IMG/VR virus record: IMGVR_UViG_3300017649_000001
Coordinates: 24,798 to 88,797 of that record
Length of the DNA stretch: 64,000 bases
Reading direction: 5' to 3' (one strand)
Source: a virus
Taxonomy: Duplodnaviria; Heunggongvirae; Uroviricota; Caudoviricetes
Position numbers and translations under genes: made by a program. The notes below the pieces were generated by a model. That model ran no database searches. It was not told the origin of the DNA and saw nothing but the letters and a program-made list of their open reading frames with translations. Each line of letters opens with the position of its first letter. Position 1 is the first letter of the stretch. Positions 10,865-62,381 of the stretch are shown piece by piece.

Positions 10865-10988
10865 TCAACCCCTGCATCGCGTGTGCTATATGTGAATAAC
10901 TAACTCATTTGTTATTTACAATCTCTAACGAATTGGTTACACGCGATGCAACAGCAGCAACGGAGTACGAATTGTCTTCTAAAGACCA

Positions 10989-27624: not shown

Positions 27625-29034
27625 GTGAGCGATATCACCGGTGATACACTTATCAAATGGGGCTTCAAGCCTGGTCCGGCATTTAAGCAAATGCTTGATG
27701 AAGGTAATAAGCTTCTCAAGGGTGGCGCCTCATCGATGGAAGTTTTTCATCGTCTACAGGAGCTTAAACCTGTTGAGGTGCCGACTATTCCGCTTCGCAC
27801 CAATTCCATCCCTTTCGGTCAGTTTATCGAGCCTGAAACCGACGATGAAATTGAGAATACCAACGCCGTAATTCAGCACATGGATGCGCTTATGCGCGTT
27901 CCGACAATTAAGGCTGGCGCGATCATGCCAGACGCCTGCCCTTCTGGCTCAGCCCTCGGTACGATACCAGTCGGCGGCGTTGTCGCTTGTGAGAATGCGA
28001 TCCATCCGGGGTTTCATTCCGCTGATATCTGTTGCTCGATGGCGATCTCTGTATTTAAACGGCGCGAAGACGCGTCCAAAATTCTCGACGCCGCTATGAA
28101 GGTTTCACATTTCGGTCCTGGCAAGCGTACCGCCACTGAGGCGCGTCAACACAAGGATCTGGTGGCTCTGGTCAAAAGCTTCGATGCTAACCCGTTCCTC
28201 AAAGGTCTCGAGGACTATGGTATTCATCACTTCATGACGCAAGGTGACGGAAATCACTTCTTCTACGTGGGCGAGCTGGAATCGGCCGGGCAGACGGTCA
28301 TCGTTACCCACCATGGCTCTCGTGGTCTGGGTGGCGCGCTCTACAAGCGAGGAAAAGCAGCAGCAGAAAAGCACACCAAAATTGTTGCTCCGCGCGTCCC
28401 GCTGCATAATGCCTGGATCGAGGCAGACAGCCAGATCGGTCAAGACTACTGGGCTGCACTTCAGGTCACCCGTCAATGGACGAAGATGAATCACTTCGCC
28501 ATTCACGACGCGGTAGCAAAGCGTATCGGAAACTCCGTGGTTGATCGCTTCTGGAACGAACATAATTTCGTCTTCCAGAAATCAGACGGGTTATTCTATC
28601 ACGCAAAAGGTGCCACACCTGCCTATAGCGGCTACAGTGATGACGATCAGGGACTTACTCTCATTCCTCTGAATATGGCTCAGCCGATTTTGATCGCAGG
28701 ACATTCGAGAAGTGATCACGCGCTCGGCTTTGCGCCGCACGGCGCAGGTCGGAATATGTCAAGAACCACGCATATCAAGCGGCTTACCGCTGAGTTTGGT
28801 GACTCACGCGGATTGGGTCCAAAAGCTATTGAAGCAATCATGGCGCGAGAGACTGCCGGCTTGGACGTCAGATTCTACACCGGCGCTCCTGACGTCTCCG
28901 AACTGCCGAGCGCTTATAAGAATGCCGGACAGGTGCAGGAACAGATCCGCAAACATCGACTTGCGACAATAAACAGCCGCATCTTACCTCTCGGTTCTAT
29001 TATGGCCGGCGAGGTTAAGTGGAAGAAGATCTAA
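27625..29034 (+). CDS. rtcB: RtcB-family RNA ligase
   Basis: RtcB motifs 'GDGNHFF', 'HHGSRGLG', 'APHGAGRNMSR'; GTG start with RBS aaggag. Confidence 0.8.
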   Translation: MSDITGDTLIKWGFKPGPAFKQMLDEGNKLLKGGASSMEVFHRLQELKPVEVPTIPLRTNSIPFGQFIEPETDDEIENTNAVIQHMDALMRVPTIKAGAIMPDACPSGSALGTIPVGGVVACENAIHPGFHSADICCSMAISVFKRREDASKILDAAMKVSHFGPGKRTATEARQHKDLVALVKSFDANPFLKGLEDYGIHHFMTQGDGNHFFYVGELESAGQTVIVTHHGSRGLGGALYKRGKAAAEKHTKIVAPRVPLHNAWIEADSQIGQDYWAALQVTRQWTKMNHFAIHDAVAKRIGNSVVDRFWNEHNFVFQKSDGLFYHAKGATPAYSGYSDDDQGLTLIPLNMAQPILIAGHSRSDHALGFAPHGAGRNMSRTTHIKRLTAEFGDSRGLGPKAIEAIMARETAGLDVRFYTGAPDVSELPSAYKNAGQVQEQIRKHRLATINSRILPLGSIMAGEVKWKKI

Positions 29035-29042
29035 CCTTAACG

Positions 29043-29100
29043 TAAACTGCCGCTCAATAAACGAAAAAAACCCAGGATCACCACTGACCTGGGTTTTCTA
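29043..29100. terminator. bidirectional intrinsic terminator
   Basis: A7-cccagg...cctggg-TTTTCT. Confidence 0.7.
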
Positions 29101-29103
29101 CGG

Positions 29104-29319
29104 TTACTGAACGTGAGTTATTTCGTTTTGAGTAGGTTCGTATAGATGAGAAAGTCCGAAGAGAACGATGTTAGAGGCTGCCTCTTCCACAGTCCTACTA
29201 ACGAGTGGCACCGCTTTACTGTCTAAAGTTAGTCCCCTGCGCCGAATGAGACTTTGTGTGTGTTGCATTAATTCGTCCACGAGGGACGCCCTCAATTCCG
29301 ATAGTTCGGTGTCATTCAT
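29104..29319 (-). CDS. hypothetical protein (minus strand, within the AT-rich island)
   Basis: ORF on the opposite strand directly after the bidirectional terminator; lower GC than its surroundings. Confidence 0.3.
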   Translation of the reverse strand: MNDTELSELRASLVDELMQHTQSLIRRRGLTLDSKAVPLVSRTVEEAASNIVLFGLSHLYEPTQNEITHVQ

Positions 29320-29538
29320 TTTGTATCTTTTTCGATCTCATATTTCCTGTGATTGCTGGTTTCGAAGTTTCTTCCCTTCGCCCTCCTGCGACCGCACCTC
29401 TACTCCAAAAAATATGGGGATGACAACTCGAATCATTATTTTATGCACCAAATAAATACGAATTGATTAATTATTTCGATTGAAAAGCCCGGCACCAGAT
29501 CACTATAATTAAAGAGGATAAAATTCTAGGATAAGACG

Positions 29539-29763
29539 ATGAATCAAGAACGCCTAATGTATTGCGCAACTATATTTCTTGTTGAAATGAGTAAGAATTT
29601 TCACAAGTTAAATCCAAATTCCGGCGTTAACTTGCCTACTATTGAGAGTTATCCCGAATCCCACCGGTCCGCATTACTATCTTCTCTCGAAAAGGCTATT
29701 AGATCGGCGTCGTCAGAAGCCGATTCTTCTTATGAGAACTGGAAAACTTCAAGAGCGAATTAG
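29539..29763 (+). CDS. hypothetical protein (AT-rich moron-like gene)
   Basis: ORF with markedly lower GC than the surrounding genes. Confidence 0.35.
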   Translation: MNQERLMYCATIFLVEMSKNFHKLNPNSGVNLPTIESYPESHRSALLSSLEKAIRSASSEADSSYENWKTSRAN

Positions 29764-29827
29764 CCGATGTTTTCCCTTGCGCTAAAGTCATATATTAAAT
29801 AATAACTAACTGTTTAATGAGGCTCAC

Positions 29828-30154
29828 ATGCAACAGACCACAGTTACAGAAATGGATGGACTCGGGCGACTGCTACTTGGAGCGGTTCATTCAGGGGTGC
29901 TGACGGTGCGCGAAACGCCTGACGGTTATCAACTGATCATGAAAAAGAACGGCATGATCAACACCCTTCTATCAACCCCCAAACTCGCGCCTAACGAGCA
30001 ATTGTCGGATGAAAGTCTTTCGCTGCTGCTCGCCGGAGCTGAGAACGCGACCGCTCGCAGTAAAGCGGTGCAGCTCGGTGAGCGTAAAAGCGAGTTTGAT
30101 ATCGCTCCGATGACGCCAGAACAGCGTCGCAGCACGTTTAGGATCGTTTCGTGA
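29828..30154 (+). CDS. hypothetical protein
   Basis: ORF after the palindrome motif. Confidence 0.4.
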   Translation: MQQTTVTEMDGLGRLLLGAVHSGVLTVRETPDGYQLIMKKNGMINTLLSTPKLAPNEQLSDESLSLLLAGAENATARSKAVQLGERKSEFDIAPMTPEQRRSTFRIVS

Positions 30155-41600: not shown

Positions 41601-41885
41601 TCTTTCGGCGGGGTGTCATGGACCCGCCAGACGCGCAGCCGAAGGTCGTGTCACGTAAAACAACGTCGGCAGTCAGAGCAGTGGTCCTCCTTTCTACACT
41701 GTGATCTGATCGAATAGCGCACGATAAGCGCCAGGCGCTCCGCCAAGCGCCGCAAGATAGGCAAAGCGAGCTAATTCTCGCTTTGCCTACTTAGGTAAGT
41801 AACTTTCTAGTTATCTAACCACACGATCACCTGCGTGTTGTTTGATAGTTTGAAACATCAACAAAATCAGTGAGTGGAGATAAAC

Positions 41886-42526: not shown

Positions 42527-44430
42527 TTGGCTTCTTTACCACACCTCTTATATTCGGTTCATATCAGTTGTTTAAGAACGACAATCAACCAAAGGTCCGT
42601 CAAAAGCCGAGTGCTTGCCTTTGAAAAAGCGTATATTGAGAGCAGCAAATATCGAAAATAAAAACGAGCTTTGAAGACCGCTGTTACCAGCGGTCTTCAA
42701 GACGCGCAGCCGGCGGTCGTGTCTGTGAGGGAATAACACCGGCAGTTGGTGGCTTAATTTCGTAAGCCGAACCAACCGGAGACTTTAGCAAGAGGGCTTG
42801 TAACCCTTGTCTTCGAGAACAAAAATGCACCGCGATGGCAGTACGTGTGGAACAAAAAACGTCTGCTCGTCATCTTCCGATGACGTGAATGGAGGGTGTG
42901 GTATGCGTAGTACCACACCCTTTTTCATGCTTTACCAGAACTTAACATCCCATTGACAAATGCCCTAAATCGTCAACTCCAGTAAATCAGCCATTCATTT
43001 TCAGTTTGCGAAAGTAGACCAATCACTTCGTCAAATCAGCCACCAGACTGACAGGACGTAAATCAGGCCAGTCGTGAAACGCCGGCCAGCTTGTCGCTGA
43101 CTTTACCCGGAGTTTACAAAACTGGTCTGAAAGACTTGTTTTGACCTTTTGTAAATCGACGCAGACGATCACAGGCTCGATCCGACAGATGAAGAGCGCA
43201 CTTGTACGCTAGGCGTCGCGGATCTTCACCAGTGAGCATTTTTGAAGATTTCAAAAGAGTAATTTCTCGATAGCACCAATTCAGATTCGCACAAGAGATT
43301 TCTGCGGTGCGTAACTCAAAACCGCCAATAATCAGAACGACTGGTCCAGCTTCCCGCGCCAACTCTCAGATAAGCAAATAACTAGATAGGTAATTACCTT
43401 TTGGCCGAGACAAGCAAATAACTAAACTGCGCGAAACCTCGAGATAATAAGGCATACAGACAAAACACTAAATAGGCAGATAGGTACGTAGTTAGATAGA
43501 CCATAGGAACGAACATCGAGAAGAACCACAAACGATAACGAACGTCAGAACCAAGAGAAGCAAGACTGCCGGTCATAAGAGAAAGCGACAGAGCGATAGA
43601 GAGGAAGATTCTCACGCAAAGGTGAAAACGATACATAGATGAGAAGCGCCACTAGAGAACCCGATCATAGATCGAACGCATGAGAAACGCCTTATAGAGA
43701 GCTGAAGGTGAGATATGCGTATAGGGGTGAGAAAGATGCGCTAGACAGAAAGAACCTGTGAAAGTGTGAGACGGAGGAAGTGCGAGCGGCGCCTATGGCA
43801 TTTTTCCATAAACCGCCCCAATGGTTCACCTCCGTCAGCCAATTCCGGAAAAATTAGGAACCAAGGCGTTTTCCCATGGGCACGACCACATAGGCACACA
43901 GGCTCGCCCATCCCCTGCCCCGTAACCGCACGCCTACACGTCTATAAAGGCACGCAGGTAAACAGGCACATAGGCTTTTAGGCATAAACCGGAACATTGT
44001 TGCACCTATATGGAAAGAAGTTTCCACAAACCGAGCGGGATCGTTCCCGGAGCTTTCTTCCCACACTGCGAAAAGAGCCAACTCTCTATATATTATATAA
44101 ATAGGTACATAGGCATTTAGGTATATTTGTATTTAGGGAGTTGGACGAAATTGCAGAACTCCCGGTAGCGCGACCAATGGTTTCCCCAGACCGGTTATAA
44201 CTACATGCCTAAGCGCCTAAATCGTCAAATAACTACTTCCATAGGCCGGCCACAGTTCTCGCCATACCCCGGCTCCCATGTATGGAATATTTTTAAGATC
44301 AAATAAGCCACGTTTCCATGCATATAAGCCGAATGTAACCCGTCACGCGTTTTGATACTTTCAAATCATAGAGAGCACGAGGCAAAGGCGCTCTAGTGAA
44401 ACGAATTTCAACTCTGATGAGGAAAGTATC
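42527..44430. other. 1.9-kb ORF-free repeat- and hairpin-rich noncoding region; candidate origin, centromere or ncRNA locus
   Basis: No plausible ORF; purine-only tract ~43400-43790; ATAGGYA tandem iterons; CCWWWGG heptamers. Confidence 0.6.
42893..42927 (+). terminator. intrinsic terminator inside the noncoding region
   Basis: ggtgtggtatgcgtagtaccacacc hairpin followed by CTTTTTC. Confidence 0.55.
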
Positions 44431-45294
44431 ATGACCGAAGTATCCAATCTGCATCTTGACGTTGTTTCCGCCAACGCAATCGCCAACGATGTTGACCTTA
44501 ACGATATCGACGCGCTGATCGCTGCGGCCGAAAAGGAAGAAGCCACACAGAAGCTGATCGACGAAGCCAAGCAGGCCGCACTTGATGCGCAGGCCGAGCT
44601 GGACCAGGCCAATGACGACGATACGGGCGAGGCCGTTTCTGAGACGACCGTTAATATCACGCCGGTATTCGAAGAAGGCGACATTCACCAGATGCGTAAG
44701 AGCGTCGACGGCAAGACCGTTGAAAAGATCCGCGCAGAAGTGACGGCACAGTTCGATCAGCGCACCAAGTTCCACGCTGACAACGATCCGCACAACACCA
44801 ATATCCAGAAGAACCTGGCGAAGTACCGTCAGCAGTTCTCCTCGCCGCACACTGCCGGTGTGATCGCAGCGTGCAAGATGGAGGTTTCTTTCATCAATCG
44901 TGTGAAGCGTGGCGAACAGTGCTTCAACGTCTATTCGGTCGAGAAGGTCTCCAAGCTGATCAATCAGATCGTGCTCGGTGTCGCCAACAACGCCTATAAC
45001 GACGCCATCTTCAAGTCGATGTGGAACTTCATGAAGGCGAAGGTGCCTTTCACCACAGAAGCAGCCAAGGCAGCGATCTCCGACCAGATTGCGGTCAAGG
45101 ACAAGCAGATTAAGGCGCTTCTCGTGCGCCATACTGTGAAGCCAGGTACTGCGTCCACACAGTCGAGTTCCTCGCTGCGCGCGATGGAAGTTCTGGGCAT
45201 TGTGCGCAACGCCGGTACTGAAGGTCGCCAGGTGTGGGTGCTGAACGATAATCCGCAGATGCGCGCTGTTGCAGCGAGCTATGGACTGAACTGA
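44431..45294 (+). CDS. hypothetical protein
   Basis: RBS gaggaaag; strong terminator downstream; the overlapping 404-aa minus ORF is judged spurious. Confidence 0.5.
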   Translation: MTEVSNLHLDVVSANAIANDVDLNDIDALIAAAEKEEATQKLIDEAKQAALDAQAELDQANDDDTGEAVSETTVNITPVFEEGDIHQMRKSVDGKTVEKIRAEVTAQFDQRTKFHADNDPHNTNIQKNLAKYRQQFSSPHTAGVIAACKMEVSFINRVKRGEQCFNVYSVEKVSKLINQIVLGVANNAYNDAIFKSMWNFMKAKVPFTTEAAKAAISDQIAVKDKQIKALLVRHTVKPGTASTQSSSSLRAMEVLGIVRNAGTEGRQVWVLNDNPQMRAVAASYGLN

Positions 45295-45318
45295 GTTAGG
45301 AGTGAGACGAGCATAATA

Positions 45319-45352
45319 GGGGCCGGAGTTACATCTGGCCCCTATTTTTATG
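45319..45352 (+). terminator. intrinsic terminator
   Basis: ggggccggag...ctggcccc hairpin followed by TATTTTT. Confidence 0.65.
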
Positions 45353-45658
45353 CGTGATTGCTGACCATTGGATTTTTGGGGAACCAAGGCGAATGGCCTA
45401 TGGGTTGAGAAGCTGCGGGAAGAAGGCGCGACCAATGGGAGCCGCGGGACGGCGGAACGCACAATTAGGCAAATAGGTATTTCGGCATATAGGCTTGTAG
45501 GCACGCTTCTCACCTTCCGGCCATAGGTTGACGCATATCTCGCGTTGGAGCGCGCCAGTGACGGTTTATGCGCGTTTTATGATATGCCGTTTGTAACTAC
45601 GTAGTGATTTAGCTATTTAGTTATTGTCTGAAACACAAACGAGAAAGATAGCCTCACC

Positions 45659-45970
45659 ATGAAGATCACCTTTAAAGTCGAGTTCCACGAATATGACGAA
45701 ATGAACGACGCCCTGTTCGCCATTGTCAGACGAGTCGACGCCAATGAGGAATTTGAGATCTATAATATTCGCGCTCATTTCGACACAGCGATTTACGGCA
45801 TCGAATACGCTCTTCCAGAACGCGCAGAAGCCGAAGTTGATTACGCACCAACAATTCTGCTGTTCTTCATGCGCGCATTCAAAGACCGCTACGCCAAGCT
45901 CGATCACACCGCATCGCCTGCAGATGTGTTTGGTGAGGAACTTGTGTTCACACTCGACATTGACGCCTAA
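45659..45970 (+). CDS. hypothetical protein
   Basis: ORF; terminator aaaagcagc-ttcg-gctgctttt follows at 45974-46000. Confidence 0.45.
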   Translation: MKITFKVEFHEYDEMNDALFAIVRRVDANEEFEIYNIRAHFDTAIYGIEYALPERAEAEVDYAPTILLFFMRAFKDRYAKLDHTASPADVFGEELVFTLDIDA

Positions 45971-46233
45971 CGCAAAAAGCAGCTTCGGCTGCTTTTCTTT
46001 ATGTGACGATCGACCATAGGCCAGGCCATTGGTCATCAGGCCGTTTCCAGGCGCCAGGCCAATGGTTATTTACCTATTTCCCTAAATCCCTACCCGCCTA
46101 TAAGCCTATCTCCTCACGGGACACTTCCGGACGCTCGAGCATTTACCGCATTCGGCTCACTACATGCCGATTTAGTTATCTAGTGATTTAGTTAGAATAA
46201 ACATATCGAAACACTCACTAGAAAGTCACTCAC

Positions 46234-46617
46234 ATGAACAAGATCGAAGCCACCATCCGCCAGCACGCTCGTATCATCGCAGACGCTGACGAAATGCTGG
46301 ACGCGCTCGAAGATATCTCGCCAATCGTGGCACAGCTCAACATCGTCGATCGCCCGAAGAAGGACACGCCGGTCTCGCGCAAGCTTCAAATCATCAAAGA
46401 GATCCGCGCTCGCTGTGATGCAGCCATCATGAACATGCTCGACCAGATCACCGATTACGACCTGATCGACAAGATTTTTGCCGCTGCCAACGAAATCAAT
46501 GCCGAGCGTGCTGCTGACCGTGCGGCACTTGCCAAGATCAAGCGCGAGCGTATGGAGAGAATGAACGCCCATCGCGCCAACGCACAAGTCGCCGATCAAG
46601 TCGCTGTCGCAGCCTGA
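46234..46617 (+). CDS. hypothetical protein
   Basis: ORF after a palindrome-motif variant; hairpin terminator at 46635-46671. Confidence 0.45.
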   Translation: MNKIEATIRQHARIIADADEMLDALEDISPIVAQLNIVDRPKKDTPVSRKLQIIKEIRARCDAAIMNMLDQITDYDLIDKIFAAANEINAERAADRAALAKIKRERMERMNAHRANAQVADQVAVAA

Positions 46618-47076
46618 GACCACACGAGCGCGCCACGTCATGTGCAGCGCGCTCTCTTTTGAGCACTAGTTAGGTTTTCAGGCAAATAGGCAGATAAGCA
46701 TGTGGCAGATACCTATGGAACTAGATAACTGAATAGGCAGGTAGGCAAATTGCCTATGGAATATCGCCGGACGAGGATTTCGGATTTTTGGGGAACGGCA
46801 GTCACCACATAGGGAGCCGGCGTATGATGGCACAAAGGCGGGCTAGGGCGGCTTCCTATGGTGAGCGCCCGCGGGAGGCGGGGAATGGCATAAATCCATT
46901 CCCCTTATAGGCCAGGCCATTGGTATCGCTAAACCACCAATGGACTTGCGGCCTATGGCAATCAGGCCGATTTCAAAGCCAACCCCATCAAAATGCGCCA
47001 TTCCTCCGGGGGCGATAGGAATGGCGCACGTATTTGACAGGTAATTGCCTATTTAGCCATATAGGCGTTTAACTAC

Positions 47077-47307
47077 CTAGAGCAAGGCAAGCGGGTCGTC
47101 AAAGAAACGCTTTCGCAGATTGTGGGGCACAGAATTATCCTCGCAAAAGGGCAGCCCCAGAAGATCCATCATAAGGTTGGTCGATTCCGCGGATTCGCGC
47201 ATGGACCGAAGTCTGTCCCGTCGTGCCCGGTCAAAAGCCAGTTTCTGGCGTGCCGAGAGATTAGGGCGGTCGAAAATGGGCAAAGTTGCCATATCAGCGC
47301 ACCTCAC
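47077..47307 (-). CDS. hypothetical protein (minus strand)
   Basis: Overlaps the upstream minus ORF by 14 nt. Confidence 0.3.
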   Translation of the reverse strand: MRCADMATLPIFDRPNLSARQKLAFDRARRDRLRSMRESAESTNLMMDLLGLPFCEDNSVPHNLRKRFFDDPLALL

Positions 47308-47488
47308 ACGCGAAAATCGTTTCCATCGTGACGTTTCCCACGTGGGTCACTTCGGTGAGCTTCTCGCGCTGGAGCTGGTAGCCAATGCAATCTTCCTGGG
47401 TAAGACCCGTGTCGAGAATGAACTCCTCGGATTGCGTCCCGTGCGTTGGCGACGAAAAGAGCGTTATGGCGATAAGAGCGAATTTCAT
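47294..47488 (-). CDS. small secreted protein (minus strand)
   Basis: Signal peptide 'MKFALIAITLFSSPTHG'; palindrome-motif variant upstream on the minus strand. Confidence 0.35.
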   Translation of the reverse strand: MKFALIAITLFSSPTHGTQSEEFILDTGLTQEDCIGYQLQREKLTEVTHVGNVTMETIFACEVR

Positions 47489-47750
47489 TGTGAGTTGCCT
47501 TCGTTGTTTGTCACTAATCGTTTAGTGATTTTGTTATAACTGATTAGTGAGTAATGAAAATCGGCTTATGAAGTTTCTCACATGGTAATTTCTAAGCAGG
47601 GAAGGGCGCCCGCGACCGATGAATCTCCGGATACGAACCAATGAGCCTGGCTAACCGTCCCCGGCAATTCCAATGGATCCGCCACTTTTGGATTTTTGGG
47701 GAACGGATGCAAATCCAATCAGGGGAACCGGTACATAGGTACATAGGTCT

Positions 47751-47832
47751 CGTGTGTGCGTGCGCATGTGCGTGCGCATGTGCATGTGCATGTGCATGTG
47801 CATGTGCATGTGCATGTGCATGTGCATGTGCG
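47751..47832. repeat. hexanucleotide microsatellite (CATGTG)n, about 9 perfect plus 4 imperfect units
   Basis: Tandem gcatgtgcatgtg...; gives artefactual His-Ala and Cys-Ala repeat ORFs on both strands. Confidence 0.9.
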
Positions 47833-48055
47833 CTCATGCGTCATGCGCACGCATGATCGAGATAACTAAATAGATAGTGATTTATTCGCTCAAAAACACG
47901 TCATAGAAGCGTTTCAGCGCGTTTCTAGTATCATTTGTCATCTGAAGCTAGAAACGCGCTCTAGAGTCAAATTTGAGCGTTTTTCGCAAAGCGTCATAGC
48001 GTGTCAATGATAGCGTTTCGCGCATGAACGCATGACACATGCGCAAAACGCAAAA

Positions 48056-48127
48056 AAGCGCTCATATAGAGCGCTTTGAAGCTTTAGCAGATAAGAAAAG
48101 CGCTCTATTGCTAGAGCGCTTTCAAGT
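48056..48127 (-). terminator. two tandem intrinsic terminators for the minus-strand gene 48131..48730
   Basis: Hairpins aaagcgctc-atata-gagcgcttt and aaagcgctcta-ttgc-tagagcgcttt; each is followed by a T-run when read on the minus strand. Confidence 0.55.
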
Positions 48128-48130
48128 CTG

Positions 48131-48730
48131 TTATGCAAAGAATTCTTGCATCTTTGCAAGCGCGTCTGCATCTTTGTTAATTTTGAAGAAATTAACTCTT
48201 TCTTTTCTCGAAACTAGATCAAGAATTTTGAAGAAACGCAATGCAACGCTTGACGATGACGCTTGCGTGTCGCAAGTGCGAGCGTCTTTTACTTCATTGC
48301 GCTGATAGACAAGCGCTTTCAATTCGTCTGTAAGAACAATCTTTTCATCGACATTATTCTTTGTGCAAGCAAGCTTGAGAACGCTTGACGTGATATTTTC
48401 TTTATCATTCTTTACATGCAACAAAACAGTTCGCGTCACACATGCATGAAAGTCTTGCATCTTTTTGCTGTCATAAAACATGACAGAAAGCATTTCGCGA
48501 ATTTTGTTCAACGCATAGATATTATCATTCAACATAGATGCATCAGCGTTGATTGTGTCGAGATATTTTTCAACTTTCTCATATGAAACTAAATTCATCA
48601 GCTTAATCATGTTAGCTGTATTGTTATCAAGCTTGTCGCTTGCGCTTTCTTTCTTGCGTGCTTCAACGCGAGCGTTGATGATTGCAGCGTATTTGTTGAG
48701 CGTAGCAGTTTTTGCGTTGTTCTTCGACAT
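48131..48730 (-). CDS. hypothetical protein, AT-rich minus-strand gene (likely horizontally acquired)
   Basis: 199-aa Lys/Asn-rich ORF with GC far below the genome average; palindrome motif upstream on the minus strand; tandem terminators downstream. Confidence 0.5.
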   Translation of the reverse strand: MSKNNAKTATLNKYAAIINARVEARKKESASDKLDNNTANMIKLMNLVSYEKVEKYLDTINADASMLNDNIYALNKIREMLSVMFYDSKKMQDFHACVTRTVLLHVKNDKENITSSVLKLACTKNNVDEKIVLTDELKALVYQRNEVKDARTCDTQASSSSVALRFFKILDLVSRKERVNFFKINKDADALAKMQEFFA

Positions 48731-49134
48731 GTGAGTAACTTTCTAGTTAGTGAGTTAATATTTCGTCGTTTCGTTTCGACAATTTGTTTATAGCGTGCTG
48801 TTTTGAGAAAAAAAAGCGAAGTCTTACAAGTTTTGCTAAGTCTTTTAGGGGATGCCTAGGGCCAACACAGCACTCCGGGCAACTAACCTCCGCTCCTTTT
48901 AAACCACGGATATCATTTATATTTATTCCCGGCACCGATATTCAACCAGTCAGGCTTCCGGATATTCCAGAGCGCGCCGATTTACTTAACCTCCGCTTTG
49001 CACTGTTTACCCCATACCACACGTCCAGGATCCGTTGCCCATCCTCCGCACCCTCAATAAATAACTAAATAGTTATTGATTTTCTCAAAAGTGAGGACTA
49101 GGTTGAGGAAACCGAACCGATCAAGAGGATCGAA

Positions 49135-49662
49135 ATGACGAAACCGCATACAGGGCTACCCGTCGCAGGATATCAGTCGCAGAGCGATGAAGCGGTGGCC
49201 GCCGTAAACCGCAATAAAGTGCTGGAAGAAGTGGCCCTTCGGGCCATCGAGCGGGCAGGGGAGGAGCTTGAAGGGCTGGATCCTCGTGCGCTGGCACTTG
49301 CAAAGACCAAGATGCAGGAAGCCTTCATGTGGTTCAATCGAGCCATCTTCCAGCCCAAGCGTATTGAGGGCGATCTGCCAATCGATGTGAGCCTGTTCTT
49401 CGACGAAGGATTGGTTATCGACCACAAGCTTCACGGCAAGTTGCAGCTTTTTCCGTTCACGGGCACAGCCGACAGCGCCGCAGCGCTCGCCAAGAAGCAT
49501 TCCTCTATCGTGACCTACTATGATGACGATCTGGATCGTTGGAGCGTCAGTGTGTCGTCGATTGATGGTGGAACTGTTGAGCTGGCAATTGGCGATTACC
49601 TCGCTATCGCTCGTTCAGGTCGCGCAATTGCGATGCCCAAAGAGACGATTGAGCTTCCATGA
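49135..49662 (+). CDS. hypothetical protein
   Basis: ORF after the palindrome motif; ATGA overlap with the next gene. Confidence 0.45.
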   Translation: MTKPHTGLPVAGYQSQSDEAVAAVNRNKVLEEVALRAIERAGEELEGLDPRALALAKTKMQEAFMWFNRAIFQPKRIEGDLPIDVSLFFDEGLVIDHKLHGKLQLFPFTGTADSAAALAKKHSSIVTYYDDDLDRWSVSVSSIDGGTVELAIGDYLAIARSGRAIAMPKETIELP

Positions 49663-50264
49663 GCGTCGTAACCTACCGCAACTACGTGATGGCTGCCGAT
49701 ACGCGAGCTTATAGCGGCCGTCACACTCCAATTGGCAACAAGATGAAGATCAGGGCGTTGAATAACGCTGGAATCGCAGGTGTTGTCACCTCTCAGCCAG
49801 GTCTGGGCGAAGCTCTGTTGGAATGGCTCGAAAGCAATCGCGACCCCGGTCTCTATCCGAATGTGCCGGAACCTGTTTTCGACATTCTGCATGTCGACGA
49901 AAAAGGGGAGGTCTATTTCTATCACGACAGTCCTTACCCGTCTGGCCCGTTGAGCGGTCCATTCTTCGCCGTAGGTAGCGGCTGTGATTTCGCTTTGGGC
50001 GCGATGGCAGTTGGTGCAGATGCCGTTCAGGCAGCGGCAGCCGCCTGTGAACTAGACACAGTGTGCGGTGCACCGGTGGCACGCGTTGAGCATCCAATTC
50101 TTCTGCAGCGCGCGCAGGAAGCTGAAACTGCCAATATGGTCGAGAAGTTGACCGAAGAAAATGCGCAGCTTCAGGAGCAGCTTGCGGCCTTGAAAGGCGA
50201 AGAGCCGGTGGAGAAGAAGTCGGTCAAGATCACAAAAATGCGCAAGGAAACTGCCGTTGAGTGA
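49659..50264 (+). CDS. HslV/proteasome beta-like Ntn-hydrolase-fold protein with coiled-coil tail
   Basis: N-terminal 'VVTYRNYVMAADTRAYSG...KMKIRAL' and 'FFAVGSGCDFALGAMAVGADAVQAAAAACELD' parallel HslV '[21 protein letters not shown]...KVRRL' and '[26 protein letters not shown]'. Confidence 0.5.
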   Translation: MSVVTYRNYVMAADTRAYSGRHTPIGNKMKIRALNNAGIAGVVTSQPGLGEALLEWLESNRDPGLYPNVPEPVFDILHVDEKGEVYFYHDSPYPSGPLSGPFFAVGSGCDFALGAMAVGADAVQAAAAACELDTVCGAPVARVEHPILLQRAQEAETANMVEKLTEENAQLQEQLAALKGEEPVEKKSVKITKMRKETAVE

Positions 50265-50795: not shown

Positions 50796-51095
50796 TCAGC
50801 CTTTTTCTTTGCTCTGACGACCGCGCAGCTCTTTCTCGACCTCAATAGCCTGAATGTGCTCTGACCGGCGCCAGTCGTTAAAAATCTCAACGAGGAAGTC
50901 ACGCATCGACATACCGCGCTGTGTGGCGTGCATTTTAAACTCGCGGTGCCAATATTCCGGCATATTGAAGGTCATCGAGACGATCTTCTTTTGCTTCATA
51001 TTGTCGGCAGCGGTTGGTTTCAGAGCCGAAGCTGCGCCCAAGAAACTCTTCCGACGCTCAGACGGCTTGATTGGAACGGGGGAGTCGTCAGACAT
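50796..51095 (-). CDS. ribbon-helix-helix DNA-binding protein (ParG/CopG-like)
   Basis: 'KIVSMTFNMPEYWHREFKMHATQRGMSMRDFLVEIF' is an RHH fold; immediately downstream of ParA on the same strand. Confidence 0.55.
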   Translation of the reverse strand: MSDDSPVPIKPSERRKSFLGAASALKPTAADNMKQKKIVSMTFNMPEYWHREFKMHATQRGMSMRDFLVEIFNDWRRSEHIQAIEVEKELRGRQSKEKG

Positions 51096-51741
51096 ATTCT
51101 TCCTCTACCAGCTTGTTCACTTTGCGAATGATTTCGTCCATCAAACCCATGGCGCGGTCGTTTAGCGTCTTGAAATTGCTTTCGCTGATAGCCCGACCGG
51201 TGTTTTGCGCCATCTGATAGCCAATTTTATAGGAAAGCTCGCTCTCGGCGATCTGGAACTCGGCTTCGCTGATGTAATTGCGAGCATCTGTAACAGCGTT
51301 TGTCGATTGATCCGACGTCTTGTTCAGGACGAACAGAATACGATGGTTCTCGACACCTTTGTTTCGCAGCTCCATAGCAAAGGCGACCTGCGGCTTCAGA
51401 TCATCAAATGTCAGACCCGTCGGAATGATCACAAGCGAGGATTGCTGAGCGATTGCGAGCGAAGTGATATCCGAGTCTGGCTTGCCATCGGCAACGACCA
51501 GATCCACTTCTTCGTGCTTGATAGCTGTCGGCGAATTGAAAGGCTTCACCTGGATAGCAGGTTCAACGCCTTCTGCCGCGCGTATCTTGCCCCAATCGGA
51601 GGCCGTGTTCTGACGCGTATTGAAATCGGCCAGCAAAACGCTCCAATCGTTCTTCACAAAGGTATGCGAGATCAAACGAGCGAGTGTTGATTTTCCGACG
51701 CCGCCCTTTTGCGAAAGACAGGCGATGACGAGATCGGCCAT
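51088..51741 (-). CDS. parA: ParA/MinD-family partition ATPase
   Basis: Deviant Walker A 'LSQKGGVGKST'. Confidence 0.85.
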   Translation of the reverse strand: MADLVIACLSQKGGVGKSTLARLISHTFVKNDWSVLLADFNTRQNTASDWGKIRAAEGVEPAIQVKPFNSPTAIKHEEVDLVVADGKPDSDITSLAIAQQSSLVIIPTGLTFDDLKPQVAFAMELRNKGVENHRILFVLNKTSDQSTNAVTDARNYISEAEFQIAESELSYKIGYQMAQNTGRAISESNFKTLNDRAMGLMDEIIRKVNKLVEEEYV

Positions 51742-52011
51742 TTCTACACCTCTGTAGTTAGATAACTATCTGCCTAGATAGCTTCATTCCTACATAGCTA
51801 AGTAAGCCAATTCGGTTAACGGGTCATTAAAAAAATATAATAGGTAAATGCCTATTTAGTGATTTAACTATTTACTTAGTGAGGAATCGGCTTTATATTC
51901 AGGAACAGTTGATGTTGCTGTTGACTATCGGGGAGAGGGGGTTACGCCTCTGACCCTTCTCCCCACTCTCTTATGGGCACCTCCTCCTATATCCCATACT
52001 TAAATGGCCGC

Positions 52012-53583
52012 TTATGCGGCCATTTTCGTTTCAAAGATCGACCAGTCGAAGTCATCGCCGGGTGGAAGGATTCCTTCTGCAAATCCCGGAGTGAATCTAA
52101 CAATAGCCTCGCGCTGAGCTGCGTGATCTCGAAGCGTGGCGTTGGCGTTGCAGGAATAATCCGCGATGAACGCGAAATTGGGCATATCTCTCTTTCGACG
52201 AAGACCACGCCCGATCTGCTGCCGAAGCTGCACTTCTGCTTTCATACCTCCAGCCCTTTGCACCAGACCGATCGCCGGCACGTCTACGCCGACGTCAAGA
52301 ATGTTGGTTCCGATCAGAACATCGATTTCGCCGTTTACCAGACATTTGAGCTGCGCCTGGCGAACCTCCATTTTATCCTCGCCGCGAAGAAACTCGACCC
52401 GGAGACCGTTCGAACGATAACTCTCAAGGATATTGTCGCCGTGCTTCTTGCGCGCAACCAGAACGAGGACGGGTAGCGAATAATCTCGCGCCCGGAGAGC
52501 GTCCTTCAGCATCGCGTCCAGCATATTCTGGTTTTCGATATATCCGAGCGTATAGGCGCGCTCGAATGGAGACGTTTTGTGCAGACCTTTCGGCGCCTCA
52601 ACGTCAACGAAGCGAAAGAACGGTTTCGCCAGAATGCCGCGATCAATCAGCAGCTTCTCAGGAATGTCGATCAGCACCGGCCCGAATGCCGCCATTAGGC
52701 GCATATTGTCTTCGGCCGACGAGCGCATGAAAGGCGTCGCAGTCAGCGCCACCCGAATATGGGCATTTTTGCAGTAGCGGAGAATCTCATAATAGGATTT
52801 GCCGCCTGCTTCGTGCGCTTCTTCGCCTATGACAACCTCAATAAGTGATAAGAACTTCAAAATCACGTCACGGCGCTTGTTTTTCCGCTCAACAACCTCG
52901 TCAGCCATCTTCAGAATCTCTGCGCGAGACGTATTCGGATTCTTTCCCTTCGCCGTATGCAATGATTTGATGATCTCACGCATTTCCGCATCACGAGACG
53001 GTACTTCGAGCGCCTGAACGAGTGTCTGAACCATGCCGAGATTCACGCCGCGTGAGAAGCTAAGCTCGCCATCACCGACCTGACCTATTTCCATCTTCAG
53101 TTCTTCGAGCTGATCCTTCATCTGGTAAAGAAGGATTCCGCGCGTTGTGAGAAACAGGGTAGGGCGGTCGTAACGCGCCATGATCAACTTGGCGATCTTC
53201 GATTTGCCACCGCCGGTCGCTACACGAATGATGCCAGCATTGTGCTTCTCGACCTGACGCAAGGCTTGCATCTGGTAGTCATAGTCCGGATCGTCGTTGC
53301 CGAAGGCATCAACGATGGGACTTTCTGGACCACGAGGTGGCGGAGCGGGCTTCTTCACCAAGCCAACAGTGTGACCGATTTTTTGCAGTTCTTCGCGAAC
53401 AATCGTGACGAAACCTGCAGGAAACGTGCAGTTGATGACATTGTAGAACGATGATTTACCGCTCCAGCCCAGACCGCCCTCGACATTGTACGACAAAAGA
53501 TTGGTGACGAACGTAGCCACCTCTTTTGTCGGGTCGATAAGCTTCGCCACGACTGCGTTCTGAGCGATTGTAACCTTTGCCAT
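52012..53583 (-). CDS. superfamily-2 DEAD/DEAH-box helicase (UvsW-like)
   Basis: Walker A 'TGGGKSK', 'EEAHEAGG' (DEAH-like), motif VI 'QQIGRGLRRKR'. Confidence 0.75.
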   Translation of the reverse strand: MAKVTIAQNAVVAKLIDPTKEVATFVTNLLSYNVEGGLGWSGKSSFYNVINCTFPAGFVTIVREELQKIGHTVGLVKKPAPPPRGPESPIVDAFGNDDPDYDYQMQALRQVEKHNAGIIRVATGGGKSKIAKLIMARYDRPTLFLTTRGILLYQMKDQLEELKMEIGQVGDGELSFSRGVNLGMVQTLVQALEVPSRDAEMREIIKSLHTAKGKNPNTSRAEILKMADEVVERKNKRRDVILKFLSLIEVVIGEEAHEAGGKSYYEILRYCKNAHIRVALTATPFMRSSAEDNMRLMAAFGPVLIDIPEKLLIDRGILAKPFFRFVDVEAPKGLHKTSPFERAYTLGYIENQNMLDAMLKDALRARDYSLPVLVLVARKKHGDNILESYRSNGLRVEFLRGEDKMEVRQAQLKCLVNGEIDVLIGTNILDVGVDVPAIGLVQRAGGMKAEVQLRQQIGRGLRRKRDMPNFAFIADYSCNANATLRDHAAQREAIVRFTPGFAEGILPPGDDFDWSIFETKMAA

Positions 53584-54406: not shown

Positions 54407-55088
54407 AATCGATCATTCAAAGCAGGCGATCGAAATCTGGGATATCGATAAGATCAAACCCTACGAGCAGAACGCCAAGATTCACGATGATGCACAGGTG
54501 GAGAGCCTGTCGCGCTCGATCAGTAAGTTTGGCTGGTCCTCGCCAATTGTCATCTGGACCGACGGCGTAATCATCGCCGGGCACGGTCGCCGTCTCGCAG
54601 CCCTTAAACTCGGGCTGAAACGTATCCCTGTCATCGTTCGCCGCGATCTGACGAAGCTTGAAGCCGACGCCATGCGCATCGCTGACAACCAGGTCGTCAG
54701 CAAGAACTACGACACCAATATTATGTCCGACGAACTCCGTCGCATTAATGCGGAGCTGGAGATCGGCGGCGGAGATTTCGAGCTTTTCGATCTCGGCTTC
54801 ACATCCAAGGAGCTTGATATTCTGGTCGAGCCTCTCGAGGAAATGGATCTCAGCGTCTTCACTGATGATTTAAGCGAAGCATTGGCCGAGCAGCGCGAGA
54901 AAAACGAGGCGATTGTCGCTTCCATTGACGAAACCGCAGCCCCAGTCGGCGACGCCTTTGGCTTCAAGCGGGTGACAATTGAGCAGTCTCGTGAAATCCG
55001 CAACTTTATGCGTCAGATCGAGACGGTCGAAGGACAAAAAGGGGCGGACGCCCTTTTGGCTTTCTTTCGTAAGTACATCACTATCTAG
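54390..55088 (+). CDS. ParB-N-domain protein (second copy)
   Basis: 'PIVIWTDGVIIAGHGRRLAALKLG' ParB-N motif. Confidence 0.65.
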   Translation: MKPMSEIDHSKQAIEIWDIDKIKPYEQNAKIHDDAQVESLSRSISKFGWSSPIVIWTDGVIIAGHGRRLAALKLGLKRIPVIVRRDLTKLEADAMRIADNQVVSKNYDTNIMSDELRRINAELEIGGGDFELFDLGFTSKELDILVEPLEEMDLSVFTDDLSEALAEQREKNEAIVASIDETAAPVGDAFGFKRVTIEQSREIRNFMRQIETVEGQKGADALLAFFRKYITI

Positions 55089-55106
55089 GCATTTAGGCTT
55101 TTACCT

Positions 55107-57483: not shown

Positions 57484-57572
57484 TCCAACTCTCTAAATAT
57501 ATTATATACAGAATGATAAATATCTAATTAGTTATTTATATATTTAGAGAGTTGGATGAAATTGCAGAACCC
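57484..57572. promoter_or_regulatory. AT-rich inverted-repeat element ending in GTTGGATGAAATTGCAGAAC (second copy at 44078-44172)
   Basis: 18-bp inverted repeat tccaactctctaaatata/tatatttagagagttgga around an AT-rich core; lies upstream of the terminase genes. Confidence 0.5.
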
Positions 57573-57661: not shown

Positions 57662-58315
57662 ATGACAACTGAGCCGGAGACACCGGAGAACACTGAAGAA
57701 GAAAAGTCCGGCCGGAGAAAGTTGTCGGACGCCGATTACGCGGAAGCTTGCAATTTGTACGAACTTGGACAGGCCGGCATTGCTGAACTGTCTGATAAAT
57801 ACGGGTGCACGCGCCAGAATTTGTATAACCGCTTTAAAGCAGACGGCATCAAAAAATCTTCACGGGTCCACGAGCTTCAAACTGCGGCCACCGAAGCGGC
57901 AAAAAAGGCGGCCGAAGTTGCGGCTGCCGCAGCAAACCGTTTTAGCGCCAAACGCGCCGAACTGATCGAAGAGACCCGAATACAGGGCCTTAACCTTTTC
58001 AAGCAAAGTCGCCTGCTGGCTCACAAGGTCGTCACGGACGCTCTGAAGTCCGCACACTCGCTCGCATCTGTCGATGACGATCTTAAGGCGCTTCAACGAT
58101 ACAACAAGATTCTCACAGAGAACATCACCACGTCGCTCCAAGTGCTGAATGCAGACGAGCACGTTGACGAGAGCGATATGCCTCTCCTGCGCATCGAGGA
58201 TCTGACTGAAGAGGACATTCTTCAGCACCACAAGAATACGGGTGCTCTCGAGCATGACGCGACGGTTGATGATCTAAACCTACCTGATCTATCGGAAGTC
58301 ACCAGGACAATCTGA
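57662..58315 (+). CDS. terminase small subunit (putative)
   Basis: HTH-like N-terminus; stop overlaps the terminase large subunit start (ATGA). Confidence 0.5.
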   Translation: MTTEPETPENTEEEKSGRRKLSDADYAEACNLYELGQAGIAELSDKYGCTRQNLYNRFKADGIKKSSRVHELQTAATEAAKKAAEVAAAAANRFSAKRAELIEETRIQGLNLFKQSRLLAHKVVTDALKSAHSLASVDDDLKALQRYNKILTENITTSLQVLNADEHVDESDMPLLRIEDLTEEDILQHHKNTGALEHDATVDDLNLPDLSEVTRTI

Positions 58316-61347: not shown

Positions 61348-62277
61348 ATGCCGCATTGGCTTAATAAGTACGCAATCGTTCGCAACGCAGATGGTCTGGG
61401 TTCCGGTGGTGGCGAAGGTGACGGCGCTGCTGCCGCAAAGAAAGAGGGCGATGAAGGCGATGGAAAGACCGCCGAAACCGCCGACGACAAGAACAAACCT
61501 GGCGCCGAGAAGGCTGCCGGAGCGACTGCTGCTGACCTTGAAAAAGCTTCAGCCGAAGAGCTGCGTCGCATCATCGCGAATATGAGCAAGGAGAAGGAAG
61601 AACTTCTCGGCGACGTGATGAAGAAGAAGTCCAAGCTGACGGAGAGCGAAAAACTCCTGAAGGAATATGGCGAGATTTCACCCGACAAGGTTCGGGAACT
61701 GCTTGACCGTGAGCGTCAGGCCGAAGAAGCACGTGTTGCCGCCGAGCGAGAAGCTGCGGAGCGGGCAGGTGACTTCGAGCGCGTCAAGGAAATGATGGCA
61801 GAACAGCATCGCCGTGAAGTTGAAGAATTGAAGGCAAATCTCACCACCAAGTCCTCGCGAGAAGGTGAGCTGATTTCTGTCATCAATGAATTGACCATCG
61901 GCAACTCGTTCTCAGGCTCCGGTTTCATTCGTGACAATCTTCTACTGTCGCCGGCCAAGGCCCGTACCCTGTATGGCGGCCATTTCGATAGCGAAGATGG
62001 AAAGATCGTTGCCTATGACAAGCCGCGTGGCGCTGCAAATCGCACACCGCTCGTGGACAGCCAGGGTAACAACCTCGACTTTGAAGCCGCTATTGAACAC
62101 ATCATCCAGAACGATCCGGACAAGGATAGTATCCTCAAGTCCAAGATGAAGAAGGGTGCCGGTTCTCGCAGTGCAAATGTTGAAGGTGACGGCGATGGTA
62201 AAGCTAAAGATGACGGCCTGTATGGATCGTCGCGTATCTCGGCAACCATTAGTCAATTCACTGGCCTCAAGCGATAA
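61348..62277 (+). CDS. scaffolding protein (putative)
   Basis: Gly/Asp/Glu/Lys-rich coiled-coil ORF between the portal and capsid genes. Confidence 0.45.
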   Translation: MPHWLNKYAIVRNADGLGSGGGEGDGAAAAKKEGDEGDGKTAETADDKNKPGAEKAAGATAADLEKASAEELRRIIANMSKEKEELLGDVMKKKSKLTESEKLLKEYGEISPDKVRELLDRERQAEEARVAAEREAAERAGDFERVKEMMAEQHRREVEELKANLTTKSSREGELISVINELTIGNSFSGSGFIRDNLLLSPAKARTLYGGHFDSEDGKIVAYDKPRGAANRTPLVDSQGNNLDFEAAIEHIIQNDPDKDSILKSKMKKGAGSRSANVEGDGDGKAKDDGLYGSSRISATISQFTGLKR

Positions 62278-62381
62278 CTAACCGGTTATTTATTTTCTCC
62301 TTGTTTTGGCTTGGCTGTTCGGTTAACATAACTAAATAGTTAGTTAATCGAATGGCCTTTTTGTGCCCAAGGAGAAATTGA

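Follow-up and report, generated by a model that had tools for sequence, protein, structure and literature searches.

A conserved, repeat-dense and gene-poor segment in a Rhizobium-type phage-plasmid genome as a possible cis-regulatory and maintenance hub

We characterized a 6.6-kb segment (positions 42527-49134) of a 64,000-nucleotide (nt) stretch of tailed-phage DNA (Caudoviricetes; IMG/VR virus record IMGVR_UViG_3300017649_000001, positions 24,798 to 88,797), referred to below as the window, in which the gene array is interrupted by repeated DNA. The segment carries arrays of short boxes in an 8-bp register, lies close to an operon encoding a ParA ATPase and a ParG-like protein, and recurs in related phages and plasmids with most of its modules in the same order. 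Our preferred interpretation, which we put forward tentatively, is that it may serve as a conserved cis-regulatory and maintenance hub, in which protein-coated partition and repression arrays and a non-coding RNA (ncRNA) would be combined with swappable single-gene cassettes. The segment is the largest conserved non-coding feature of its phage family and has been undescribed so far; among the papers examined, those naming close relatives do not discuss it. Phage-plasmids are increasingly regarded as common vehicles of gene flow, and to our knowledge their maintenance and switch circuitry is not known outside P1, N15 and SSU5.

A first-pass annotation made from the sequence had claimed that coding density collapses in this segment, and this is borne out. 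Six genes (Table 1) account for 2571 of its 6608 nt (39%) compared with ~83% in the 10 kb to the left, as counted from the gene table, and the same six were called by an independent gene caller on an identical metagenome contig (L008/L011). The further claim that 42527-44430 is free of any open reading frame (ORF) does not hold literally, as mechanical ORFs of up to 82 amino acids (aa) exist, but no gene was called there and no ORF reaches 100 aa. Dispersed repeat modules, perfect hairpins and a microsatellite had also been described, and all of them were recovered where they had been placed, with the repeats far above chance. Pairs of TAG trinucleotides 8, 16 or 24 nt apart numbered 48, compared with 4.5 ± 2.3 (maximum 13) in 200 dinucleotide shuffles; 23, 15, 10 and 6 pairs were spaced at 8, 16, 24 and 32 nt, whereas most other distances gave 0-3. 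Runs of three TAGs phased at 8 bp were found nine times, always between 43473 and 46173 and nowhere else in the 64 kb. The heptamer CCAATGG/CCTATGG (CCWATGG) is present in 19 copies at 43501-47670, all intergenic, with a single copy in the other 57 kb. An exact 15-mer, GGATTTTTGGGGAAC, occurs three times, in each case on the + strand and after a terminator.

The boxes fall into two classes. Boxes of the TAGG(C/T)A class, spaced by 4 bp of A/T-rich DNA and arranged both directly and inverted (for example TAGGCAAATAGGTATTTCGGCATATAGGCTTGTAGGCA), occur mainly in the segment, with further small clusters at 41758-41792, upstream of parA (51771-51849) and at 55086-55102. Boxes of the TAGTKATT class, often arranged as the palindrome TAACTAA-n-TTAGTTA, are found 13-75 nt upstream of >20 genes across the window, with sites at 1178-1193, 2096-2113, 7800, 19073, 53639, 59611 and 62274-62328 among them, and therefore represent a genome-wide promoter/operator motif and not a segment-specific one. 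The motif probably serves either as an operator for a global regulator or as an element of a promoter specific to the phage, and its sequence varies by lineage, reading for example TTTCTATAAA..TATAGAAA in the relative L005. To the right of the gene for a 287-aa protein, a unit of terminator, GGGGAAC module, box arrays and promoter-proximal array is found three times, among small genes on both strands. Among relatives the GGGGAAC module hardly varies, and in many lineages it reads GGGGAACGGCTTAGGATCAAGGGATCC, which corresponds to three 8-bp units. Two readings of it were tried and rejected: a LexA box, as no GAAC-N7-GAAC pattern was seen, and a promoter for an extracytoplasmic function (ECF) sigma factor, as no shared -10 element lies downstream. 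A sigma-70 promoter scan returned 4 sites compared with 8.4 in shuffles and is uninformative for this host.

About 2 kb (1.7-2.6 kb) to the right of the segment lies an operon of the ParA ATPase gene and a gene for a small ribbon-helix-helix (RHH) protein. The profile of this RHH family matched TP228 ParG (1p94) with an E-value of 1.9e-5, followed by Mnt and antitoxin RHH proteins. In case of the single 99-aa sequence the Pfam ParG match was weak, and the ortholog in L016, a more distant relative, carries RHH_10. Traits of type Ib partition systems are found here, namely a ParA ATPase gene followed by that of a small RHH protein, and arrays of short boxes in 8-bp register, both direct and inverted. 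Because of this TP228-like layout, the adjacent ParA/ParG-like operon, the boxes upstream of that operon and the precedent of the omega protein, discussed below, we favor a protein-coated hub that would combine partition sites with promoter control. Its intergenic DNA is a tiling of degenerate 4-bp boxes (TAGG, with TAGT at promoters) and 4-bp A/T-rich spacers in direct and inverted orientation, which would be coated by the ParG-like protein and possibly also by two winged-helix paralogs encoded at either side. The coated arrays may form a large nucleoprotein complex that would act as the partition site or sites of the plasmid prophage and shut off the promoters inside it. Single-gene cassettes, consisting of promoter array, gene and terminator, sit between the arrays and are gained and lost by strain. 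A purine-rich block with [AC]TAGA(GAG) repeats (43370-43800) would form the 5' part of a + strand non-coding transcript, while the alternating purine/pyrimidine microsatellite may act as a variable, structure-prone spacer.

Several observations weigh against this proposal. The type Ib analogy places the centromere directly upstream of parA, where arrays do exist (51757-51880), and as a result the arrays in the segment, 2.6-8 kb from parA, need not be centromeric and would at best be additional sites. The TAGTKAT class, present upstream of >20 genes window-wide, acts as a general promoter/operator motif. Further, relatives encode a second RHH protein, a helix-turn-helix (HTH) regulator and a sigma factor beside repC, any of which could instead read the motifs.

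By its protein sequences, the window belongs to the RHEph10/B1VFA/pLM21S1 family of Rhizobium-type phage-plasmids of ~110-120 kb. This assignment follows from protein identities, plasmid-borne homologs and the published descriptions of pLM21S1 and B1VFA. Large window proteins are ~45% identical to those of the Rhizobium phages RHph_X66, B1VFA, V1VFA-S and RHEph10 (115-122-kb siphophages), and homologs of the 287-aa protein are found on five 116-119-kb alphaproteobacterial plasmids from Sinorhizobium, Rhizobium, Shinella and Methylobacterium. One of these plasmids, pLM21S1, was termed a plasmid-like prophage with a RepC-type replicon (PMC4447125), and B1VFA and V1VFA-S, which have fixed ends and 3.6-3.9-kb terminal repeats, were termed phage-plasmid-like (PMC12509600). 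The window encodes RecA, an Mre11/Rad50-like pair, ribonucleotide reductase, ThyX, RtcB and an HD hydrolase, as well as ParA, two ParB-N proteins, a UvsW-like helicase, terminase and portal; the identical gene set is carried by the metagenome contig L008/L011, which is 112 kb long. So far, repC and ParA are the sole maintenance genes named for the family (PMC12509600, PMC4447125). In pLM21S1 (L165 1-7090), repC, an RHH gene, a divergent HTH regulator gene and a sigma-factor gene stand together in one block. This repC block lies ~62 kb from the segment copy of the plasmid, roughly opposite on the circle, and the equivalent block falls outside the 64-kb window.

A megablast search with the segment against phage and plasmid collections gave no match. 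As relatives are too diverged for nucleotide search, protein-anchored synteny was used. Single-protein pattern scans of genome and viral contigs revealed no relative. Likewise, an exact 14-mer (TTTTTGGGGAACGG) found in at least 119 stretches of viral contigs was rejected as too short to be specific, none of the stretches fetched encoding a relative. Another 27 loci, nearly all of them on contigs of 109-121 kb, came from a profile scan of IMG/VR. A survey of ORF gaps was unreliable in relatives with 55-66% guanine-cytosine (GC) content. Comparison with related phages had been set beforehand as the test that could refute an unusual element at this place. In relatives, ordinary genes are absent from this place, and the repeat modules are kept in kind, order and orientation. 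A gene-free gap of 1.3-1.9 kb lies upstream of the 287-aa homolog in B1VFA, X66, pLM21S1, two Logan contigs with 66% and 39% protein identity (L003 and L005, respectively) and the more distant L016 and L017. In B1VFA, pLM21S1, L005 and L017 the gap holds most modules in the same order, that is TTTAC(/TTGAC) repeats, a TAGAGAG-type purine block, a GC-rich conserved block, the GGGGAAC module and an AT-rich element, and this order recurs in relatives whose flanking protein is only ~38% identical. Downstream, loosely packed small genes are followed by the - strand paralog and the ParA-RHH operon. The box sequence varies by lineage with the 8-bp register being kept: TAGG in the window, TTAGG/TTAGC in L003 and AGCT/CTAGG in the B1VFA group and pLM21S1. 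L005 has corresponding ATAGA/ATAGG motifs, with no clear 8-bp register in the one array inspected. The heptamer varies among lineages in the length of its central A/T part (CCTAGG, CCWATGG, CCWAATWGG).

Within the gap of the window, the 430-nt polypurine block contains eight [AC]TAGA motifs, all on the + strand, at irregular spacings of 15-114 nt (18.6/kb compared with 0.93/kb genome-wide). Purine content over 300 nt peaks in this block for the entire 64-kb window, at about 5 standard deviations above the mean. In 26 of 31 related loci, the 300-nt stretch with the highest purine fraction in the whole 10-20-kb locus falls on the same strand as the winged-helix gene and 500-1150 nt upstream of it, and AGAGAG and TAGAGAG repeats recur in the block across the family. 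Purine fraction was used as the marker of the block; T-poorness was dropped, being confounded by the acidic N-terminus of the winged-helix gene. Since orientation-specific purine richness is kept across the family, a strand-specific function seems likely. An alignment of eight relatives revealed ~300 nt of conserved non-coding sequence 3' of the block, in which frame-breaking indels disfavor a coding reading. One hairpin in this stretch shows compensatory changes (GAGCGCT/AGCGCTC vs GAGCGAT/ATCGCTC), a second has differing stems, and 17-19 of 30 relatives carry a strong + strand intrinsic terminator at -390 to -620 nt from the gene start (folding free energy, dG, -15 to -31; differing stems). 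The succession of purine block, covarying hairpins and, in most relatives, terminator suggests, as far as sequence can indicate, a long ncRNA.

Two results speak against such an RNA in the window itself. Neither the window nor its nearest clade has a convincing + strand terminator 3' of the purine block (the best in the window reaches -1.9 kcal/mol), and folding of the block gave no excess stability compared with shuffled sequence (z = -1.1). With the terminator missing and the block not unusually structured, the case for an RNA in this genome comes from homology of architecture only. Rfam 15 yielded no match in the window at the gathering score; at E <= 1 it returned microsatellite artefacts (microRNA) and Proteo-phage-1. 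The Proteo-phage-1 RNA match is sub-threshold (42666-42747, over the 13-bp hairpin at the left edge; 24.9 bits vs a cut-off of 42, E 0.33). A further-reaching interpretation, which we regard as rather doubtful, is that the whole family shares a previously unknown ncRNA of ~0.6-0.9 kb. Its 8-20 single-stranded (U)AGAGAG-type repeats and structured 3' domain would either sequester an RNA-binding protein, Hfq-like from the host or encoded by the phage, or form an R-loop, and thereby set the balance between maintenance and lytic growth. The surrounding 8-bp arrays, read by the ParG-like and winged-helix proteins, would then constitute a dispersed centromere or repressosome of a kind undescribed for phages.

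The purine block could alternatively be part of a transcription-primed lytic origin. T4 oriF/ori(uvsY) and ColE1 RNA II are origins of this type, and they share with the segment a purine-rich transcript region upstream of an easily melted AT-rich element; a UvsW-like helicase is encoded as well. Transcription from a promoter in the TTTAC/TTGAC cluster would generate a purine-rich RNA:DNA hybrid (R-loop), the AT-rich element 300 bp downstream would unwind, and a UvsW-type helicase would clear the R-loop. At the same relative place as this cluster, relatives carry CCTTTACA/TGTAAAGG repeats, often with TTGAC. Such an origin would account for the strand-specific polypurine block, for the AT-rich core in inverted repeats (44078-44144), whose position is conserved, and for the UvsW-like helicase at 52012-53583 (X66 annotation). 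However, in most relatives a strong terminator and conserved hairpins are placed between block and AT-rich element, a difference from the T4 and ColE1 origins, and because of this terminator the transcript would end before reaching the proposed unwinding element. In addition, GC skew shows no inflection at the segment in the 1-kb composition profile, gene orientation does not switch there, DnaA-like boxes lack enrichment, and a second copy of the AT-rich element upstream of terS looks more like a promoter or regulatory element. Overall, we consider an R-loop origin unlikely. DnaA-like boxes were not enriched in the window and none within the segment is perfect. A DnaA box had been considered on account of an invariant TTCTCCAC in the alignment of relatives and was rejected for this lack of enrichment. 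The sole cluster of such boxes in the window lies at 10750-11069 around the start of the ThyX-like gene, with five DnaA-box-like 9-mers in 320 bp, two of them perfect TTWTNCACA.

Duplication of the AT-rich element upstream of terS bears on a packaging role, which had also been suggested for the segment. It would either contain a pac/terminase site or be a direct terminal repeat like those of 3.6-3.9 kb in B1VFA and V1VFA-S. B1VFA has two copies of the element at the same two places with a different sequence (one at L014 5260-5345), and its genome ends are fixed and carry a terminal repeat of 3.6 kb, for which no position is given (PMC12509600). Several independent contigs end 0.35-0.75 kb upstream of the winged-helix gene. 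The contig of L003 ends inside the AT-rich inverted-repeat element and those of L009 and L012 end in the microsatellite, so that assemblies break at both places; such breaks at microsatellite or AT-rich palindromic DNA are explainable as ordinary assembly problems, and the repeated modules are a reason why assemblies of these genomes break here. Contigs L005, L008 and L009, by comparison, cross the segment intact. The terS/terL genes lie 8.5 kb to the right, and the 13.4 kb between both copies of the element is at odds with a 3.6-kb repeat. On this spacing, the element was rejected as a terminal-repeat boundary. A packaging site is thus not borne out and appears very improbable, its sole link being the AT-rich element duplicated upstream of a terS-like gene 13 kb away.

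The 287-aa protein had no sequence match in Pfam, PHROG, NCBIfam or PDB, yet its family comprises 338 clusters at 50% identity. An AlphaFold2 model from a 6-sequence alignment was unusable (predicted local distance difference test score, pLDDT, 50); with a 75-sequence alignment, pLDDT rose to 87.5 and the model showed a long N-terminal helix, a helical core and a C-terminal helix with beta-hairpin. In a profile-to-profile comparison (hhalign), the 287-aa and 199-aa proteins matched with 97% probability (E 1.6e-11), and both contain the motifs N(V/I)YA..K and T..TQ.SS..AL; in L016 the second paralog was found directly by tblastn. Profile comparison and structural model thus identify the two proteins as paralogs with a predicted winged-helix fold. 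The segment is therefore bracketed by two convergent paralogous genes for proteins of DNA-binding type. The first-pass description of small unrelated genes on both strands holds for the strands, but not all of the genes are unrelated, given these two remote paralogs. The 199-aa gene has ~40% GC in a 52% GC genome, and its homologs in relatives of 59% GC also look AT-shifted. Elsewhere in the window, the kilobase 29001-30000 has the second lowest GC content (43%).

A winged-helix gene between repeats also recalls an iteron-type plasmid replicon, as in P1, where the incC and incA iterons flank repA. The 287-aa protein would be the initiator, the flanking repeats its iterons and the AT-rich element the unwinding element. 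In line with this, repeat arrays lie on both sides of the gene, the AT-rich element is ~300 bp upstream of it, the family lives as plasmids, and Orc1/Cdc6 winged-helix domains were among the weak fold matches of the protein. We nevertheless regard such a replicon as distinctly unlikely. There are no 17-22-bp iterons in helical phase, the units being 8-bp-phased tetramers and the [AC]TAGA spacing irregular; the model has one winged-helix domain and not two as in RepE/RepA/Pi; no Rep Pfam family was matched by any of the 75 family members; DnaA boxes lack enrichment; and relatives already carry RepC, ~62 kb away in pLM21S1.

Gene content of the segment differs even between close strains. L004, a 95%-identical strain, lacks 45457-46017, which comprises exactly the 103-aa gene with its promoter array and terminator (L004 1750-1794 corresponds to window 45457-46017). 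In relatives, different small genes are found between the same framework genes, the homologs of the 287-aa, 127-aa, small - strand and 199-aa genes. Such cassettes of promoter array, gene and terminator come and go among strains, probably because the repeated modules recombine with one another. It is possible, if less probable than not, that the segment is simply a hotspot for early or accessory gene cassettes in a loosely packed early or anti-defence region. Its repeats would then be promoters, operators of a global repressor or phage sigma factor, and terminators, and density would be low because each small gene forms its own transcription unit. Each gene in the segment indeed has its own promoter-proximal array and terminator, TAGTKAT/TAACTAA-n-TTAGTTA motifs stand upstream of genes genome-wide, and cassette content differs among relatives. 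Further, an Acb2/Tad1-type anti-defence gene adjoins the segment, a Rap1a-like gene is present in the L003 version, relatives have a sigma-factor gene, and GGAAC is similar to an ECF -35 element. However, this would leave unexplained the 1.9-kb gene-free stretch with its family-wide module order (the 430-nt polypurine block being kept in 26/31), the 19 segment-confined CCWATGG heptamers and the TAGG arrays far from any promoter, and GGGGAAC is not followed by a common -10 element.

The microsatellite lies within an alternating purine/pyrimidine tract (47751-47833) which, with 83 nt, is the longest of the window. Its length differs between strains and is much shorter in L004 (L004 3565-3574 vs window 47787-47844). 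Directly right of the segment, 49135-50264 encodes an Acb2/Tad1-hairpin protein (anti-CBASS/Thoeris sponge family, Pfam E 4.7e-15), followed by an HslV-like peptidase. Transfer RNA (tRNA) genes, which relatives carry between the 199-aa and Acb2-like genes, were not found in the window by ARAGORN. Positions of all features are listed in Table 1.

Table 1. Features of the segment 42527-49134 and associated features elsewhere in the window (positions count from the first letter of the window).
Feature	Position	Strand	Content or basis
Six genes	44431-45294, 45659-45970, 46234-46617; 47077-47292, 47294-47488, 48131-48730	+ (first three); - (last three)	
Perfect 13-bp hairpin with T-run, terminator-like	42671-42700	-	Left edge of non-coding segment
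Perfect 11-bp hairpin followed by TTTTT, terminator-like	42893-42921	+	Back-to-back with hairpin 42671-42700
GTAAATC / TTTAC repeat cluster	42960-43165	both orientations	Sequence
Polypurine, T-poor block, 430 nt	43370-43800	+	A 40%, G 27%, C 18%, T 15%
Heptamer/box field	43792-44245		CCWATGG at 43792, 43818, 44174, 44239; TAGG arrays 43948-43996, 44095-44143; reverse strand near 44195-44240
TAGGAAC variant of GGGGAAC module	43855		Sequence
AT-rich element	44078-44158		~40-bp core in inverted repeat CCAACTCTCTA / TAGGGAGTTGG (44078-44144), plus conserved flank GACGAAATTGCAGAAC
287-aa protein	44431-45294	+	Acidic/coiled N-terminus, helical core, predicted C-terminal winged-helix domain
Intrinsic terminator of 287-aa gene	45315-45346	+	Hairpin and T-run
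Module 1	45365-45525	+	CCATTGG, GGATTTTTGGGGAAC 45370-45384, CCTATGG, CCAATGG, five-unit TAGG array 45466-45503, CCATAGG
Single-gene cassette	45602-45996	+	Phased TAGTGATT/TAGCTATT/TAGTTATT array 45602-45625, 103-aa gene 45659-45970, terminator 45975-45996
Array stretch	46014-46194		Three CCWATGG; reverse-strand AGG-box array 46060-46115; promoter-proximal phased TAGTTATC/TAGTGATT/TAGTTAGA 46165-46194
127-aa gene	46234-46617	+	Present in all relatives; weak PHROG 1273 match
Terminator hairpin of 127-aa gene	~46626-46662	+	Sequence
Module 2, densest repeat field	46672-47075		TAGG arrays 46672-46708, 46725-46755, 47039-47071; six CCWATGG; GGATTTTTGGGGAAC 46782-46796; hairpins 46880-46904, 46994-47028
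Perfect hairpin stems	46994-47028; 48097-48122; 45975-45996, 46880-46904, 48055-48077		12 bp; 11 bp; 9 bp (last three)
Two small genes, 71 aa and 64 aa	47077-47488	-	Kept in L003 and L005
Palindromic operator/promoter motif	47511-47550		TCACTAATCG...TGATTAGTGA, upstream of - strand 71-aa/64-aa pair
Module 3	47670-47750	+	CCAATGG, GGATTTTTGGGGAAC 47690-47704, second GGGGAAC, GGTACATA x2.4
Microsatellite (TGTGCA)x12.8	47755-47831		Within alternating purine/pyrimidine tract
Operator-like ATAACTAAATAGATAGTGAT	47862-47883		Repeat analysis
Hairpin with 18-nt arms	47916-47960		Inverted-repeat search
Two tandem terminators	48055-48077, 48097-48122	-	
199-aa protein	48131-48730	-	Remote paralog of 287-aa protein
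Upstream region of 199-aa gene	48735-49134		Operator-like motif 48735-48756; GGGGATGCCTAGGG kept in relatives
Palindromic operator AATAAATAACTA/TAGTTATTGATT	49056-49081		Ahead of Acb2/Tad1-like gene
ParG-like RHH protein, 99 aa	50796-51095	-	RHH-like sequence; downstream of ParA
ParA ATPase	51088-51741	-	ParA domain matches; outside segment
8-bp-phased box arrays, both classes (TAGGYA, TAGTKAT)	51757-51880		Upstream of parA
Second copy of AT-rich inverted-repeat element	57485-57570		CCAACTCTCTA...TAGAGAGTTGGATGAAATTGCAGAAC; just upstream of terS-like HTH gene 57662-58315

Among the functions proposed for the segment in the first-pass annotation (origin, partition or packaging site, ncRNA cluster or another undescribed element), partition/operator arrays gain indirect support from the 8-bp register and the nearby ParA/ParG-like operon. 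An ncRNA is indirectly supported by the strand-asymmetric purine block and by the covarying hairpins and terminator of relatives; the window lacks that terminator and matches no Rfam family. Packaging found no support, and the case for a replication origin is weak, as an AT-rich element is present but DnaA-box enrichment, 17-22-bp iterons and a Rep-type protein are missing. In the segment, a layout of ParG type is connected with sites dispersed over several kilobases, and its study brings to light a widespread uncharacterised protein family with a paralog pair as well as a candidate long ncRNA. The purine block and GGGGAAC modules form an unexplained component that could turn out to be new. 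If the arrays function as proposed, they would supply cis-elements for stable Rhizobium vectors, for curing or stabilising prophages and for recognizing the family in metagenomes.

The closest known system is ParF/ParG-parH/OF of TP228. In TP228, parH/OF consists of 20 degenerate ACTC boxes with regular 4-bp AT-rich spacers in direct and inverted orientation, which ParG dimers coat cooperatively, and either sub-array works as a centromere (PMC3130281). The segment resembles this site in its 4-bp boxes and 4-bp A/T-rich spacers, with 3-6 or more units per array. In both cases a ParA-type ATPase gene is followed by that of a small RHH protein with a flexible basic N-terminal tail, and phased boxes lie upstream of the par operon. 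The differences concern sequence, scale and composition. Boxes read TAGG/TAGT here and ACTC in TP228; more than 10 arrays are spread over 4.4 kb at 2.6-8 kb from parA, compared with one ~160-bp block upstream of parFG; the arrays are mixed with genes, CCWATGG heptamers and GGGGAAC modules; and the two winged-helix proteins are additional candidate readers.

Two further systems provide partial parallels. In pSM19035, arrays of contiguous heptads at the promoters of delta, omega and copS (parS1-3) are read by the RHH protein omega and double as dispersed centromeres. Both systems have, at several promoters, short contiguous repeats of mixed orientation (7 bp in pSM19035, 8 bp in the segment), as well as a ParA-type ATPase, whereas unit length and sequence differ, the arrays here are far more numerous and more widely spread, and binding of the ParG-like protein is putative. 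In the C1 network of P1, many operons around the plasmid prophage are likewise preceded by a short operator motif. The P1 motifs are single asymmetric 17-mers, in contrast to the phased tandem boxes found here, for which a repressor is putative. Compared with ParF/ParG-parH/OF, the segment stands apart in its scale, its dispersal, its extra motif classes, its pair of winged-helix paralogs and its purine block.

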